This document shows, in pieces, positions 16,572 through 23,797 of a stretch of DNA of 64,000 bases. Position 1 is the stretch's first letter; every line of letters starts with the position of its first letter. The translations under genes and the position numbers were made by a program. The notes below the pieces were generated by a model, which was not told where the DNA came from, did no database searches, and saw only the letters and a list, made by a program, of their open reading frames with translations. Source of the stretch: Escherichia coli (GTDB taxonomy: Bacteria; Pseudomonadota; Gammaproteobacteria; Enterobacterales; Enterobacteriaceae); the NCBI RefSeq assembly GCF_024502345.1, contig NZ_JALDNN010000001.1; one strand, given 5' to 3'.

Positions 16572-18158
16572 TTAATGCTCGCGGGTCTGGTGGAACTGAA
16601 CGTCCGGATAACGTTCCTGCGCCAGGCGCAGATTGACCATGCTGGTAGCGATGTAAGCGAGGTTATCGCCGCCATCAAGCGCCAGTTGGCTTTCGTTCTT
16701 ACGCTTGAACTCTTCGAATTTCTTCGCGTCCGCACATTCTACCCAGCGGGCAGTGGCAACGTTGACTGACTCATACACTGCTTCAACGTTGTATTCGCTC
16801 TTCAGGCGCGCTACAACCACATCAAACTGCAGCACACCAACTGCACCAACGATCAGGTCGTTGTTGGAGATCGGACGGAACACCTGCACCGCGCCCTCTT
16901 CGGAAAGCTGTACCAGCCCTTTGAGCAGCTGTTTTTGCTTCAGCGGATCTTTCAGGCGGATACGACGGAACAGTTCTGGTGCGAAGTTCGGAATACCGGT
17001 GAACTTCATCATCTCACCCTGGGTAAAGGTGTCGCCGATCTGAATGGTGCCGTGGTTGTGCAGGCCGAGGATATCGCCAGGATACGCTTCTTCAACGTGC
17101 GAACGGTCACCCGCCATAAAGGTCAGCGCGTCAGAGATCACCACGTCTTTCGCGGTGCGCACCTGGCGCAGCTTCATGCCTTTTTCATATTTACCGGATA
17201 CCACGCGCATAAACGCCACGCGGTCGCGGTGTTTCGGGTCCATGTTGGCCTGAATTTTAAATACGAAGCCGGTAAATTTGTCTTCGCTCGCTTGTACGGT
17301 ACGGGTATCAGTCTGACGCGGCATCGGCGCAGGTGCCCACTCCACCAGGCCATCCAACATATGATCGACGCCGAAGTTACCCAGCGCAGTACCGAAGAAT
17401 ACCGGAGTGATTTCGCCCGCAAGGAACAGCTCTTTGTCGAACTCGTTAGACGCGCCTTTAACCAGTTCCAGTTCGTCACGCAGCTGCTGTGCCAGATCTT
17501 CACCAACCGCAGCATCGAGATCCGGGTTATTCAGCCCTTTAACAATGCGGACTTCCTGAATGGTGTGCCCTTTACCGCTCTGATAGAGATAGGTTTCATC
17601 TTTATAAAGGTGGTAAACGCCTTTAAACAGCTTGCCGCAGCCAATCGGCCAGGTGATCGGCGCACAGCCGATTTTCAGCTCGTTCTCAACTTCATCGAGC
17701 AGTTCCATCGGGTCGCGGATATCACGGTCAAGTTTGTTCATAAAGGTGAGGATCGGCGTGTCGCGCAGACGGGTAACTTCCATCAGCTTACGGGTACGAT
17801 CTTCAACACCTTTTGCGGCGTCGATAACCATCAGGCAGCAGTCCACCGCCGTCAGGGTACGATAGGTATCTTCCGAGAAGTCTTCGTGCCCCGGGGTGTC
17901 TAGCAGGTTAACCAGGCAATCGTGATACGGAAACTGCATCACAGACGTAGTAATGGAGATCCCACGCTGCTTTTCCATCTCCATCCAGTCCGACTTAGCG
18001 TGCTGGTTGGAACCACGGCCTTTTACTGTACCAGCGGTCTGAATGGCCTGTCCGAACAGCAGCACCTTCTCGGTGATGGTAGTTTTACCGGCGTCCGGGT
18101 GAGAAATAATTGCAAAGGTTCTTCTTTTCGCTACCTCTGCGGCCAAAAGGCTTGTCAT
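16572..18158 (-). CDS. prfC: Peptide chain release factor 3 (RF3), with an N-terminus supplied by the adjacent prophage
   Basis: GTPase motifs [18 protein letters not shown]-terminus reads [15 protein letters not shown], differing from the ancestral [16 protein letters not shown] that survives as a fragment at 34906..34956. Confidence 0.9.
18098..18111. repeat. attL core: 14-bp direct repeat GGGTGAGAAATAAT inside the prfC 5' coding region
   Basis: Identical 14-mer recurs at 34892..34905; sequences outside the repeats together reconstruct an uninterrupted prfC 5' end. Confidence 0.7.
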
Positions 18159-18177
18159 AATTGTTGTCTCTTTGATT

Positions 18178-18295
18178 ATGTACAATCATATGTACAAAGA
18201 AAAATTCATGCCGCTGATTGTACATTTTGGAGGTATCAGAGCATAGCAGAACATGATCAGTAGGTGTATTTGTAGCCAAAGAACATTTGTACATG
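18178..18295. promoter_or_regulatory. Cluster of four (A/T)TGTACA(A/T) repeats, candidate integrase arm-type sites
   Basis: ATGTACAAT, ATGTACAAA, TTGTACATT, TTGTACATG just inside attL; a similar cluster sits beside int at 34670..34729. Confidence 0.45.
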
Positions 18296-18318
18296 CAGCA
18301 ATCTTTGTTCTATTGACA

Positions 18319-18362
18319 CTGTTTATTCATACAGTTAAAAATAACACTGTATACAAACACAG
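18319..18362. promoter_or_regulatory. Two tandem LexA (SOS) boxes, CTGT-N8-ACAG, around a TTGACA -35
   Basis: CTGTTTATTCATACAG (18319..18334) and CTGTATACAAACACAG (18347..18362), directly upstream of the dinI-like ATG. Confidence 0.75.
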
Positions 18363-18377
18363 TGTAGAGGGATTTTT

Positions 18378-18626
18378 ATGCGTATTGAGATCTGCATAGC
18401 CAAAGAGAAAATGACTAAAATGCCAAACGGTGCTGTGGATGCGTTAAAGGAAGAATTAACTCGACGCATCAGTAAGCGTTATGACGATGTAGAGGTGATC
18501 GTAAAAGCCACCAGCAACGATGGCCTTTCTGTTACGCGCACCGCCGATAAAGATTCAGCTAAAACTTTTGTTCAGGAAACTCTGAAAGATACCTGGGAGT
18601 CTGCTGACGAGTGGTTTGTTCACTAA
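18378..18626 (+). CDS. DinI-family damage-inducible protein
   Basis: 82 aa [12 protein letters not shown]...[10 protein letters not shown], resembles DinI; preceded by LexA boxes. Confidence 0.8.
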
Positions 18627-19052
18627 TTAACACGTAAAATCGGTAACGGCTGGAAATCATTCAATACTCGCACTATCGGAAGTTCACCAGCCAACCGCAG
18701 CACGTTCTTGCATACGACGTGTCTGCGGTTTTTCAACCATTCAGATACAGCACTCTCATCACATTCATTCTTCCGCATTAAAGTATATATGACCATATCA
18801 CCTTAATATTTTTCTTCTTCAGATAAAAATTGTTATCTATGTATACTTTTAAACCGAATCCGTGTAGAGTCTCTACCTAAGTTAGTTCGCAGCTACCCCT
18901 TCAGTTTGCGCCATTAACCTCCTGACTTTTGCCGCTATCTGTAAGCATTCCTGTATACCTGAAACTACAGGGTTCATCTACGAACTTTAAGAACACCCAG
19001 GATAAAAATTGTCAACTATATTATATATAACACCATACTAATTCGAGGCTAT

Positions 19053-19165
19053 ATGAACAGCATACTGATAATCACTTCACTACTTATCATATTCAGCATT
19101 TTTGGTCATGCTCTAATAAAATTAGGGATTGGCATATCCAATAACCCGGACAAAACCGATGTATA
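19053..19165 (+). CDS. Small hydrophobic ORF (~37 aa, [37 protein letters not shown])
   Basis: ATG with weak GAGG RBS; one predicted TM helix; too short for the ORF track. Confidence 0.25.
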
Positions 19166-19201
19166 AGTCAACATATCCTGAATCAGACATACAATATTGC
19201 A

Positions 19202-19468
19202 ATGAAAACCAATAATATTTTAAGGAATATCTTCATGAAATCAAAAGACACCCTAAAGTGGTTCCCTGCGCAGCTTCCTGAAGTCAGAATTATCCTGGGA
19301 GATGCTGTCGTGGAAGTAGCAAAACAGGGAAGACCTATCAATACCAGAACATTGCTTGATTACATTGAAGGAAACATAAAGAAAAAGTCATGGCTGGATA
19401 ACAAAGAATTATTACAAACAGCGATATCAGTTCTTAAAGACAACCAAAATTTAAATGGTAAAGTGTAA
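19202..19468 (+). CDS. ydfK: YdfK/YnaE-like prophage cold-shock protein
   Basis: ...MKSKDTLKWFPAQLPEVRIILGDAVVEVAKQGRPINTRTLLDYIEGNIKK... matches remembered YdfK/YnaE; the true start may be the internal MKSKDT. Confidence 0.7.
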   Translation: MKTNNILRNIFMKSKDTLKWFPAQLPEVRIILGDAVVEVAKQGRPINTRTLLDYIEGNIKKKSWLDNKELLQTAISVLKDNQNLNGKV

Positions 19469-19847
19469 TACCTCCCCTGAAAAATAATTTTTCAATGCAT
19501 TAAAAAAATATCAACAACTACGTTATTCCGCAACAACCTACTTTTTTTACCATTTTTCCACTTTAACAACATTTTGCTCCACTTTTCCACGACCAAACAA
19601 CTTAAAATCTGGTTAAAATAACATACAACACTATTATTCGTCTTCCTCGAGTCCGCCCGGAGTTCGAAAAACAAACCGAGTTAAAGCCATTTTTCAAAAA
19701 ATCGATTTTTGGTTACACCAAAATTACGGGACTGCATCCGAATTCGTTTATTTTCGAACGTATACATACAAATATGTACAATAATAAGCGAAATAATTTT
19801 TGGATATGCATTATGATATGTACACCAATTTCGTATAGAGTCTCACT

Positions 19848-20438
19848 ATGTCTCGAATTTTTGCTTACTGTCGGATATCAACGCTGGATCAGACCCCCGA
19901 AAATCAACGCCGGGAAATCGAAAGTGCAGGTTTTAAAATCAAACCTCAGCAAATAATCGAAGAACACATTAGCGGCTCAGCAGCAACCAGTGAGCGTCCT
20001 GGTTTTAACCGGTTGCTTGCTCGCCTGAAATGTGGTGATCAATTGATTGTGACAAAACTGGATCGCCTTGGTTGTAATGCAATGGATATCAGGAAAACAG
20101 TGGAACAACTGACCGAAACAGGTATCAGAGTGCATTGCTTAGCATTGGGGGGCATTGACCTGACCAGTCCAACAGGAAAAATGATGATGCAAGTAATTTC
20201 AGCAGTCGCTGAATTTGAACGAGACCTTTTACTTGAACGCACTCATTCCGGGATAGTAAGAGCCCGGGGCGCAGGGAAACGTTTTGGTCGACCACCTGTG
20301 TTAAATGAAGAACAGAAACAGGTGGTATTCGAACGAATTAAGTCAGGTGTAAGTATAAGTGCCATTGCCCGGGAATTCAAAACCTCGCGGCAAACCATTT
20401 TAAGAGCCAAAGCAAAACTTCAGACACCTGACATATAA
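19848..20438 (+). CDS. pin: Serine recombinase, DNA invertase (Pin/Gin/Hin family)
   Basis: [28 protein letters not shown]... resolvase catalytic domain plus C-terminal HTH. Confidence 0.9.
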
Positions 20439-20535: not shown

Positions 20536-21117
20536 CTACGGCAGTGCTGGCCATTCAATATCCTGTGCAGTTGACGTATCAACACGGTTCAGCAATACCC
20601 GATACTTTTTCCATGCTTCCAGCAACGAGATTTCTTCCTCCGTTGCAATTTCCAGATCTGCAGCATCCTGAAGCGGCGCAATATGCTCACTGGCTACCTG
20701 CATCAGGTTGTTTTTTGTTTCTTCCGCCTCCCGGATCCGGAACAGTTTTTCTGCTTCCGTATCCTTCACCCAGGCTGTGCCGTTCCACTTCTGAAACTCC
20801 CCTTCCGGGGATAACCAAGTGACATTTTCCGGTAATGGGCCAAGTTCAGAAATAAATAACGCGTCGCCGGAAGCCACGTCATAGACGGTTTTACCCCGAT
20901 GGTCTTCAACGAGATGCCACGATGCCTCATCACTGTTGAAAACAGCCACAAAGCCAGCCGGAATATCTGGCGGTGCAATATCGGTACTGTTTGCTGGCAG
21001 ACCTGTATGAGGTGGAATATATGCATCACCTTCACCAATAAATTCATTAGTTCCGGCCAGCAGATTATAAATTGTTATGGTCCGTGGTTGTTCACTCATT
21101 CTGAAATCCATGTTCAC
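20536..21117 (-). CDS. tfa: Tail fibre assembly protein (Tfa)
   Basis: 193-aa ORF with Tfa-like sequence, immediately downstream of the tail-fibre-like ORF. Confidence 0.8.
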
Positions 21118-21119
21118 CT

Positions 21120-22022
21120 CTACTTAATATCAGAGACAGAATATTGTTTATTGAACGTATGGGTGTGAGCACCAATAACGATGCTACTTCCGTGGCTATG
21201 TGCGCCAGAGATGACATTACCTACGGGATTTTCTGGATTAATCCGGTGTATATGCGAACCAGGGCGAAACCGGTTATTAGCCTGATGTTGTATCAGTACA
21301 TCATCAGCCTGATGTTCAGGGTTAATACAGACCTGCCCGGAACGTGAGCAATACGTCCGATAATCGCCGCATCCAATATATTTAGTATCCGCATAACGGC
21401 AAACAGAATTACCCGGACAGTATGCATATGTGCCAAATACTGCCGACTGGCGGGATTGTGCGTATTCCCAGTTAATTGATTCTGTTTTTTTATTAAAGTT
21501 ATCCCATGCCTGCTTCATCTGCCGGGCAACACTTTCAAACGGCACCTGACCACATCCGGCTCCCATTGCAGGGAATACCACCGTTTTTATTTTCCTGTCT
21601 GTCGTTGCGTGTTTATTGTGCTGAAAGATGGCAAGCAGAGCGGCCCAGGTTGCGTTATATACAGCGTCTGTTCCGTCAATTGTCAGCGGAACACGCATTG
21701 TTGGCGCATGTACCAGCCAGGGATGATGATTATGCCCCGTTTCAATAACAAATGCAGAACCTACAGGCTGCTCGCCGAGATATTCACGAAGAATATGATT
21801 CTGAACGCGGGACTGTAACTGAGTACCGAAGAATGCGGTAATGGCGGCATCAACACCGCCATCCATCAGGCCGAAACTGTTTGCCGCACTTACCATGCAG
21901 TCAAATTCCCTGATTGTTTCAAATGGCTTTCCGACAATATTCACATTATCTGCATTTGCGAATACCCGCTTAAATGCTTCAGCCATTTCTGTTACTGGTG
22001 CAGAAAGAATGAGCGTAATCAT
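21120..22022 (-). CDS. Macro-domain-like protein with a Cys-rich, HxH-repeat C-terminus
   Basis: Motifs [30 protein letters not shown]...[21 protein letters not shown] resemble the macro (ADP-ribose binding) fold; C-terminus GAHSHG...GAHTHT resembles tail-fibre HxH repeats. Confidence 0.55.
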
Positions 22023-22170
22023 GCAAGCCTCACAATATAGTTAAATGCGATGTTTTTGACGGTGTTTTCCGCGTTACCAGCAGCGTTAACGGTGATGGTG
22101 TGTCCATGTGACCCTATCGCAACGGAGTGCGTATGAGCACCAATACCGACAGTATGCGCGTGTGCACCTG
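22019..22170 (-). pseudogene. C-terminal fragment of side tail fibre (Stf) protein
   Basis: ...[51 protein letters not shown]; canonical Stf C-terminal end; N-terminal part missing. Confidence 0.7.
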
Positions 22171-22204
22171 CAGATACTGCTGTAAAAACGCATGAAATGT
22201 GCCG

Positions 22205-22892
22205 ACTCGTTAGCGGCTTTTTCGATCTGGCAGGAGCCTTTGATTTTAGGCGTCGAGCCGCGAATGGATTTTGGCCATACAGAGCCCTCAATACGTTTAT
22301 CCCCCAGCAGGGTTGGCGAACCCTCTTTTTCAACATCCGGTTCGAACGAGGAAAGTTCGTCATAGCAGACCACATCCACGGATTTTTCACGGTAGTTTTT
22401 GGCGGCAGCGCCGCCCAGGCACCATAAACCGACGCCCGATGAAAAGCGTTTCAGCGTGAGGGTATTATCACGATGTTTACGACCCAGCCATGGGGAAAGG
22501 TCTTTCAGGCATGGCACGTCCCTAATCGTCGTCTCCACGTGAGACTTCATAAAATCTTCAGCGGCAGAATCCGTGGGCTGAAAAAGCAGACTGTTTCGGG
22601 ATTTATGCTCAATAAAATACCCGACCACCCCCAGCAACATCTTTGTATAGCCAACACGGGCAGATTTAATCAGATTAACTGTGCGGATCTGATCATTCCC
22701 CATACTGTTCATGATGGCGATCTGGAACGGCAGCGTTTTCCATTCGCCGTCACCGTATGAGGATTCTTTCGGCAGATAATAATACTGATCAGCCCATTCA
22801 ACTGCCGTCATCGGTACAACCCTGACCAGAGGCTGCAGCGCAACCGAAACGGCAGCCATCAGATTATTCAGTTGTTGCTCTGATATATTCAT
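22205..22892 (-). pseudogene. Terminase large subunit (lambda gpA-like), N-terminal fragment only
   Basis: MNISEQQLNNLMAAV...TAVEWADQYYYLPKESSYGDGEWKTLPFQ...[34 protein letters not shown] aligns with lambda A residues ~1-250, then the frame degenerates into the stf fragment. Confidence 0.8.
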
Positions 22893-23367
22893 CCAGCAAA
22901 TCCGGTAATTTATCCCCTGCCCGCGCACACTGATTTGCGCCCTTCGCAATAAGGGTTTTCAGATGGTCAAGATGACGTGGCGTTAAATCCGGGAACTGTC
23001 GCTGCATGGATAACGGAATAGAATCAAGCGTACTGGACAATGCCATCGCCAGCTTGCTGAGGGCGAAAACGCAGAAGTCTGAATCGATGAGCTTACCTTC
23101 GGTTACCTGATTTTTAAGTTTTTGAGCTACGGCCTGTTCTTCTGTCAGTTCAGCTCTGGCCCGAAGCAGCCTTTCCTCCAGATCGCCCCCGTCATCAGGT
23201 GTTCTATGATTGTGTTGTCGCCGCTCGCGATCTATCTCCAGTACAGTTTTAACGTCATAAAAAACTTCCCTCCCCCGACGCTCGACAGGAGGAACGCCCC
23301 ATTTATCAAATGCCTGAACAGAGATACCGATGGAGGAGGCCATATCACTTTTATTCAATAAAAAGGC
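22864..23367 (-). CDS. Terminase small subunit (lambda Nu1-like, NohA/NohQ-type)
   Basis: MAFLLNKSDMASSIGISVQAFDKWG...LPLSMQRQFPDL...LDEYI resembles Nu1. Confidence 0.8.
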   Translation of the reverse strand, partial: AFLLNKSDMASSIGISVQAFDKWGVPPVERRGREVFYDVKTVLEIDRERRQHNHRTPDDGGDLEERLLRARAELTEEQAVAQKLKNQVTEGKLIDSDFCVFALSKLAMALSSTLDSIPLSMQRQFPDLTPRHLDHLKTLIAKGANQCARAGDKLPDLLDEYIRATTE

Positions 23368-23797
23368 CATCTCCTCTCCATAAGTCATCGATAAAAAGCG
23401 ATACAACAACCATGTGTTTTTACAAAACCATTTGATATCATTTAATTTTTTCACATTAATGACATCAAAGCACATCGTAAGGTTGTTGTATTTATTTTAT
23501 TTTCACCTTACTTATCAATTAGATATACCAAACAATTAAACAACAACCACCCCCTCAAAAAATCTCATAAATAGCGAAAAACCGCGAGGTCGCCGCCCCG
23601 TAACCTGTCGGATCGCCGGAAAGGACCCACAAAATGATAATAATTATCATCTACATATCACAACGTGCGTGTACGCCATCAAACCACGTCAAATAATCAA
23701 TTATGACGCAGGTATCGTATTAATTGATCCGCATCAACTTAACGTAAAAACAACTTCAGACAATACAAATCAGCGACACAGAATACGGGACAACCTC

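Follow-up and report, generated by a model that had tools for sequence, protein, structure and literature searches.

A Short Hydrophobic ORF Upstream of ydfK in an Escherichia coli Prophage Is Very Probably a Known Gene of the YnaM/YnfT Family

The stretch of DNA that we analysed, referred to here as the window, consists of 64,000 nucleotides from Escherichia coli and includes the end of a prophage that borders on the chromosomal gene prfC. Within this end lies an ORF of 37 codons plus a stop codon, which begins with ATG at position 19053 and terminates with TAA at positions 19164-19166 (Table 1). The initial annotation, made from the sequence without database searches, had proposed a 37-codon hydrophobic ORF at 19053-19165, upstream of a ydfK-like gene and in the setting of a Qin- or Rac-like prophage. 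The ORF is confirmed, with the correction that the end assigned to it omitted the last base of the stop codon; ydfK does follow, with its start 68 nt downstream, and the location of the ORF at the end of a Qin/Rac-like prophage is supported as well. An in-frame ATG at 19202 would lengthen the ydfK ORF to 88 aa (19202-19468). In Salmonella-type copies of the region the ATG equivalent to 19202 is absent and the spacer indels, which total 4 nt, break the frame, from which it follows that the annotated ydfK start at 19235 is the real one.

Table 1. Features of the prophage end that carries the 37-codon ORF (positions are those of the window)
Feature	Position	Strand	Evidence or remarks
prfC	16572-18185	-	Chromosomal gene, directly left of the prophage end
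dinI-like gene	18378-18626		82 aa; at the junction of prophage and chromosome, with prfC on one side and the ynaM module on the other
Sigma-70-like promoter match, TTCAGA-18-TATACT	18818-18847	+	Candidate only; ~205-235 nt before the ATG; consensus match at chance frequency
Shine-Dalgarno motif GAGG	19045-19048	+	Read in the sequence, 4 nt before the ATG; invariant in 14 of 14 distinct E. coli- and Salmonella-type module sequences
ynaM/ynfT-family CDS	19053-19166	+	Predicted single-pass membrane peptide with conserved tail; ORF call, RefSeq CDS WP_001372053.1, NF041477, PF23676, dN/dS, helix 2-30
ynaM-ydfK spacer	19167-19234	+	Without a terminator-like site; holds the ydfK ribosome-binding site AAGGA and the conserved TCCTGAAT motif
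ydfK, cold shock protein YdfK	19235-19468	+	77 aa; ORF, RefSeq, phrog_2718, dN/dS 0.08-0.10
Pin-type serine recombinase	19848-20438	+	Context; order as for pinR/pinQ in K-12
Tail fibre assembly protein	20536-21117	-	Context; indicates the tail-fibre end of the prophage, where all YnaM-family loci examined lie

The DinI-like protein encoded at the junction of prophage and chromosome scores 72.5 bits against a cut-off of 111 for the DinI equivalog model, and its gene is a prophage paralogue of dinI rather than dinI itself. To the right of the module, the stretch from 18200 to 43000 is a mosaic prophage in which the tail-fibre region is broken up into ORFs of 200-300 aa (21120-23475), and this prophage is probably a degraded remnant. 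None of the complete E. coli genomes covers more than 70% of the 18200-43000 stretch in one place.

The ORF was first noticed as lying in a 575-bp AT-rich stretch otherwise devoid of ORFs. The stretch itself is readily recognised as 18627-19201, which extends from the stop codon of the dinI-like gene to the upstream in-frame ATG of ydfK and has a GC content of 37.6%. The statement that it is otherwise empty stands for ORFs of at least 60 codons and fails for shorter ones, since other ORFs of 20-57 codons are present in it. By its length alone, the 37-codon ORF is not beyond chance expectation, as 65-71% of the shuffled versions of the 575-bp stretch contain an ATG-initiated ORF of at least 37 codons (P ~0.65-0.71); ORFs of at least 30 codons with an equally hydrophobic 19-residue window arise in only 0.3-0.5% of the shuffles (P ~0.003-0.005). 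What is decisive for the reality of the ORF is its conservation and the selection seen at the level of its codons, not its length.

The initial annotation had also called the ORF unannotated, and in this it was mistaken. The RefSeq record of a 100%-identical genome contains a CDS, WP_001372053.1, that coincides exactly with the ORF and is named "YnaM/YnfT family protein", and two curated models exist for the family. The peptide aligns end to end (residues 1-37 of 37) with the Pfam model PF23676 "YnaM" at 93.3 bits, for which the cut-off is 27, and over residues 2-34 with the NCBIfam model NF041477 at 59.9 bits, for which the cut-off is 35. It also matches PHROG 35882. A comparison with the protein sequence printed in PMC6001520 and with two K-12 loci revealed that 36 of its 37 residues are those of both YnaM of the Rac prophage and YnfT of the Qin prophage of K-12. 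The sole substitution, S18G (glycine in the window, serine in K-12), results from a change at the first position of codon 18, and the window allele also differs from the K-12 alleles by 3-5 synonymous changes.

The two K-12 genes have been described as ynaM, between ynaE and ttcC in Rac, and ynfQ, between ydfJ and ydfK in Qin, which encode one identical 37-aa protein (VanOrsdel 2018, PMC6001520). The Qin copy, first published as ynfQ, is now ynfT, as can be seen from the fact that the Qin region of the "y-ome" starts with ynfT at the coordinate given by VanOrsdel for ynfQ. The order ynfT-ydfK-pinQ-tfaQ is annotated in the K-12 RefSeq record, and the protein accession of ynfT is that of ynaM. 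In the window, as at these loci, the peptide has 37 residues, its gene has the Shine-Dalgarno motif and lies 68 nt from ydfK/ynaE, and ydfK, pin and tfa follow it in this order where a lambdoid prophage ends in its tail-fibre genes. The window differs from these loci in the host site, which here is next to prfC and behind the dinI-like gene, whereas the K-12 copies occupy the Rac and Qin sites. The RefSeq annotation, the family-model scores and the near-identity to proteins that have been detected in K-12 together mean that the ORF represents a gene that was already known, and we consider it very probable that it is a real, translated member of the YnaM/YnfT family under purifying selection, previously described rather than new. 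An intact ORF of the same family is missing from the GenBank annotation of several lambdoid phages in which the neighbouring ydfK is annotated, namely mEp460_ev081 (locus L004 of our set, 2704-2817), 2H10, Tritos, PhiR63_1 and PhiR68_2.

For the analysis of selection, 30 ORF-bearing loci were gathered from E. coli genomes, lambdoid phages (2H10, mEp460 and others), the Salmonella phage 118970_sal3, IMG/VR contigs and a Salmonella plasmid. The homologues were found by DNA searches and by unfiltered local tblastn; when filtering was applied in tblastn searches against phages, the hydrophobic half of the peptide was masked and only residues 18-37 were aligned. These loci contain 11 distinct nucleotide alleles, each of exactly 114 nt, while the spacer to ydfK varies between 68, 73 and 74 nt. 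Among the 11 alleles the variable sites at codon positions 1, 2 and 3 number 8, 6 and 18, respectively, and the excess of synonymous changes in ynaM is significant (Fisher test, P = 6e-6). Comparison of the window with the Salmonella-type alleles gives a dS of ~1.0, a dN of 0.11-0.16 and a dN/dS of 0.11-0.16; the ratio is 0.09 between the window and K-12 ynaM, so that the overall range is 0.09-0.16, to be set beside the values for YdfK in the same comparisons (Table 1). The YnaM peptide is under purifying selection and is constrained as strongly as YdfK. The initial annotation had made its proposal depend on conservation of the reading frame in homologous regions, and the frame is indeed conserved, with a constant length at every locus. 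The ORF is 81% identical to the Salmonella phage copy, the spacer 66% and the 55 nt that precede the ORF 55%; further upstream, homology with the Salmonella copies, which starts only ~50 nt before the ATG, is lost. Within the peptide, residues K23, G25-K34 and D36 are invariant among nine closer variants, and two divergent proteins of 38 aa, designated P0015 and P0020, have a different helix sequence and keep the motif (I/V)K(I/V)GIG(L)SNNPD(K/R)xD.

The gene is common in E. coli, and the family is narrow. The region 18900-19480 was found by megablast in 2804 of 5426 complete E. coli genomes, with ydfK and a YnaM/YnfT family protein annotated under the match; among 1.84 billion representative proteins, just 21 clusters, mostly fragments, were recovered with a family profile. 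Two of these proteins, P0015 and P0020, are full-length, and both match the Pfam YnaM model. Their genes are situated at prophage ends, by genes for tail fibres and tail-fibre assembly in elements with Mu/P2-type tails, an acyltransferase-3 gene adjoins one of the two, and no ydfK homologue was found near either. On a Salmonella conjugative plasmid a ynaM-family gene likewise occurs without ydfK, adjoining a tail-fibre assembly gene; with the two assemblies that encode P0015 and P0020, this plasmid makes up the three contexts in which the family is free of ydfK. Conversely, the ydfK homologue of an Erwinia plasmid (60% identical) is without such an ORF. A scan of the genome-contig collection for YdfK yielded two E. 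coli loci only, and the divergent copies came from phages, plasmids, viral contigs and representative proteins. The ynaM-ydfK pair is constant within the lambdoid elements of E. coli and Salmonella, and all close ydfK homologues (at least 87% identical) for which upstream sequence is available have the ORF. From the stand-alone members of the family and their tail-fibre neighbours it follows that the invariant context is a cargo position beyond the tail-fibre genes, and not ydfK, which is the usual but not the obligatory downstream partner. At Salmonella-type loci there is also a second, distant YdfK paralogue of ~70 aa and ~30% identity, with the sequence MNTLDISSYPPNLL..., located ~460 nt upstream of ynaM (at 639-851 in locus L021, around 1937-2092 in locus L002, and also in loci L022-L034). 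No hydrophobic small ORF lies directly before this second paralogue at the Salmonella-type loci.

The description of the peptide as a single predicted transmembrane helix with a polar tail holds in the light of its hydropathy and of structure prediction. The hydropathy maximum over 19 residues (KD19) is 2.54, and the summed Hessa-type dG for residues 4-22 is negative, a value to be read as approximate (scale of Hessa et al. 2005). AlphaFold2, when supplied with the alignment of the nine variants, predicts one helix for residues 2-30, with a mean pLDDT of 82 for the peptide and ~92 for residues 1-20, and an unstructured tail. There is no Lys or Arg on the N-terminal side of the helix, and K23 and K34 lie on the C-terminal side. 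By the positive-inside rule this suggests an orientation with the N-terminus outside and the C-terminus inside, a prediction that is weakened by the acidic residues of the tail, whose net charge is negative.

Synthesis of the protein was demonstrated for the K-12 alleles in 2018. Chromosomal SPA tags allowed 36 small proteins, YnaM and YnfQ included, to be detected by immunoblot, and both of these were also positive in ribosome profiling with tetracycline (PMC6001520). In stationary phase, YnaM-SPA is more abundant than most newly detected small proteins, and YnaM lacks a start peak with Onc112 or retapamulin (Weaver et al., bioRxiv 10.1101/511675). The two K-12 copies, of Rac and Qin, differ at 3 synonymous sites and are identical in their first 23 nt, and initiation footprints from copies so nearly identical map to both; a loss of multi-mapping reads is therefore a plausible reason for the missing start peak. 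The evidence for translation of the allele in the window is indirect and consists of its conserved Shine-Dalgarno motif and the purifying selection on its codons.

Several published observations bear on the conditions of expression. In RNA-seq after overexpression of yaiX, ynfT rose 5.7-fold and ydfK 5.3-fold, alongside cspB, cspG, cspI, deaD and rhlE (PMC13058169). Both ydfK and ynaE are strongly increased in long-term stationary phase (PMC7406224), and genomic SELEX has located holoenzyme peaks of RpoS, RpoH and RpoE in the uspF-ynaE and ydfI-ydfK spacers of K-12 (PMC5493296). Together with the abundance of tagged YnaM, these observations fit co-expression of ynaM with ydfK in stationary-phase or cold-shock-type conditions, probably by co-transcription. 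The candidate promoter in Table 1 lies in a region that is not conserved in Salmonella-type copies, and the ~50 conserved nt before the ATG contain no good pair of -35 and -10 hexamers, the sequence TTGTCA at 19009-19014 being without a well-spaced -10 hexamer. The element in strain 2022H047, a related and intact prophage, carries cspI, ymcF, cspB and cspF in addition, which indicates that several cold-shock genes travel on the same element.

The initial annotation had compared the architecture of the peptide with that of small membrane toxins or regulators, and of these two suggestions the regulator is plausible while the toxin finds no support. A type I-like toxin would insert into the inner membrane and depolarise it, and would normally be restrained by an sRNA that overlaps it or is antisense to it. 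The peptide does have the size, the single hydrophobic helix and the polar tail that recall Hok, Ldr, TisB, Ibs and ShoB, and the gene resides on a prophage, as type I toxin genes (including those for IbsC, DinQ and ZorO) often reside on mobile elements. YnaM differs from these toxins in that it is without homology to them, without an identified antisense or sRNA antitoxin and without the signal of a long structured 5' UTR. A Pfam search at E<=1 returned PF23676 and an insignificant match to DUF7207, and no toxin family; a scan of 18200-20000 against Rfam gave no match at E<=1 on either strand of the ORF, and the antisense strand has no unusual fold (z = -0.66). The one Rfam match that came to our attention, to the Shigella sRNA CssrB at 18696-18833 on the minus strand, lies outside the ORF and is probably due to chance (24 bits against a gathering score of 76, E = 0.028). 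PADLOC gave no defence-system match. A minus-strand promoter-like match, TTGATT-16-TAAAAT at 19217-19244, could drive an antisense transcript from the ydfK start region leftwards across ynaM and would be the obvious candidate promoter if such an RNA were ever detected; however, a match of this quality is expected at chance frequency, and it overlaps sequence that is constrained by the ribosome-binding site and start codon of ydfK. Type I toxins are, moreover, tightly repressed, whereas tagged YnaM accumulates in ordinary growth and is comparatively abundant in stationary phase, with no reported harm to the cells. K-12 maintains two copies of the gene, and more than half of the complete E. coli genomes have it. 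Taken together, these facts make the toxin quite unlikely; the peptide may still prove toxic when overexpressed.

A second alternative assigns the importance of the ORF to its translation rather than to its product. As a leader peptide or uORF, it might control ydfK through translational coupling, say, or by unfolding a structured 5' UTR of the cold-shock type. The proximity of the ORF to a cold-shock gene with no terminator-like site between them, the parallel rise of the ynfT and ydfK mRNAs and the presence of the ORF before every close ydfK homologue are all what one might expect of such an arrangement. The spacer, which is otherwise poorly conserved, also contains the motif TCCTGAAT (~19181-19188; alignment columns 94-99 and 183-188), which is kept in nearly all of 14 module sequences and is complementary to ATTCAG in codons 14-15 of ynaM; both sides of this potential pairing are invariant, so that covariation is uninformative either way. 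A search for a conserved RNA structure or thermosensor in the ynaM-ydfK leader found compensatory changes in 0 of 40 pairs and a sense-strand z of +0.84, and we reject a thermosensor or structured leader on grounds of both covariation and stability. A regulatory role for translation alone is also at odds with an amino-acid constraint equal to that of YdfK, with the three independent contexts in which the family occurs without ydfK, with the Erwinia ydfK that is without the ORF, and with a tagged protein that is stable and abundant, and we regard it as very unlikely. The last alternative, an ORF that arose by chance in AT-rich non-coding DNA and is no gene at all, is effectively excluded by the selection tests and the published immunoblots, the commonness of such ORFs in the shuffled sequences notwithstanding, for frame and exact length are conserved at a dS of ~1, the third-position bias and synonymous excess are those of a coding sequence, and the Shine-Dalgarno motif is conserved with them.

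We infer, as the likeliest but still tentative account of what YnaM might do, that it is a single-pass modulator peptide of the inner membrane, carried by the prophage as cargo and expressed by the lysogen. Residues ~4-28 would form one transmembrane helix in the inner membrane, with the three-residue N-terminus facing the periplasm and the juxtamembrane and tail motif K-x-G-I-G-x-S-N-N-P-D-K facing the cytoplasm. Situated beyond the genes for tail fibres and tail-fibre assembly, the gene would be expressed in the lysogen mainly in stationary-phase or cold-shock-type conditions, and at loci that have ydfK the two genes would probably share a transcript. YnaM might then use its helix and conserved tail to attach to a larger membrane protein and adjust the activity of that protein, without permeabilising the membrane. 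Such an account, which we consider possible and advance with less than full conviction, would align YnaM with the class of small proteins represented by AcrZ, MgrB, MgtS, PmrR, KdpF and CydX, which it resembles in having fewer than 50 aa, a single transmembrane helix, detectability by chromosomal tagging and an abundance that depends on conditions. YnaM has no sequence relationship to AcrZ, MgrB, MgtS and their kind, and it is prophage cargo, whereas they are encoded by core-genome genes in operons with their targets. As cargo, ynaM is comparable to the lambda morons lom and bor, in that it has its place at the end of the prophage and apart from the morphogenesis operons, is AT-rich, is expressed in lysogens and probably has its own expression signals; it differs from them in that they specify outer-membrane proteins or lipoproteins with known phenotypes, whereas YnaM is a 37-aa peptide of the inner-membrane type.

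A more specific version of the modulator peptide, which we think rather unlikely, would make of YnaM an agent of lysogenic conversion. Its cytoplasmic KxGIGxSNNPDK tail would dock on an inner-membrane protein of the host and alter the behaviour of the cell envelope, which could either block the DNA entry of superinfecting phages or adapt the membrane, together with YdfK, to cold or stationary phase. If true, lysogenic conversion would explain the occurrence of the gene beyond the tail-fibre genes of unrelated prophages, both lambdoid ones and those with Mu/P2-type tails.

YnaM/YnfT has been listed as a small protein of the "y-ome" (PMC11551758), is encoded in about half of the complete E. coli genomes and is abundant in stationary phase. 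To this description the present analysis adds that the peptide is under a constraint equal to that of its neighbour YdfK, that the constraint is concentrated in the C-terminal motif, and that the constant context of the family is the tail-fibre end of a prophage rather than ydfK. These three points narrow the range of functional hypotheses that can be entertained for the YnaM/YnfT proteins.
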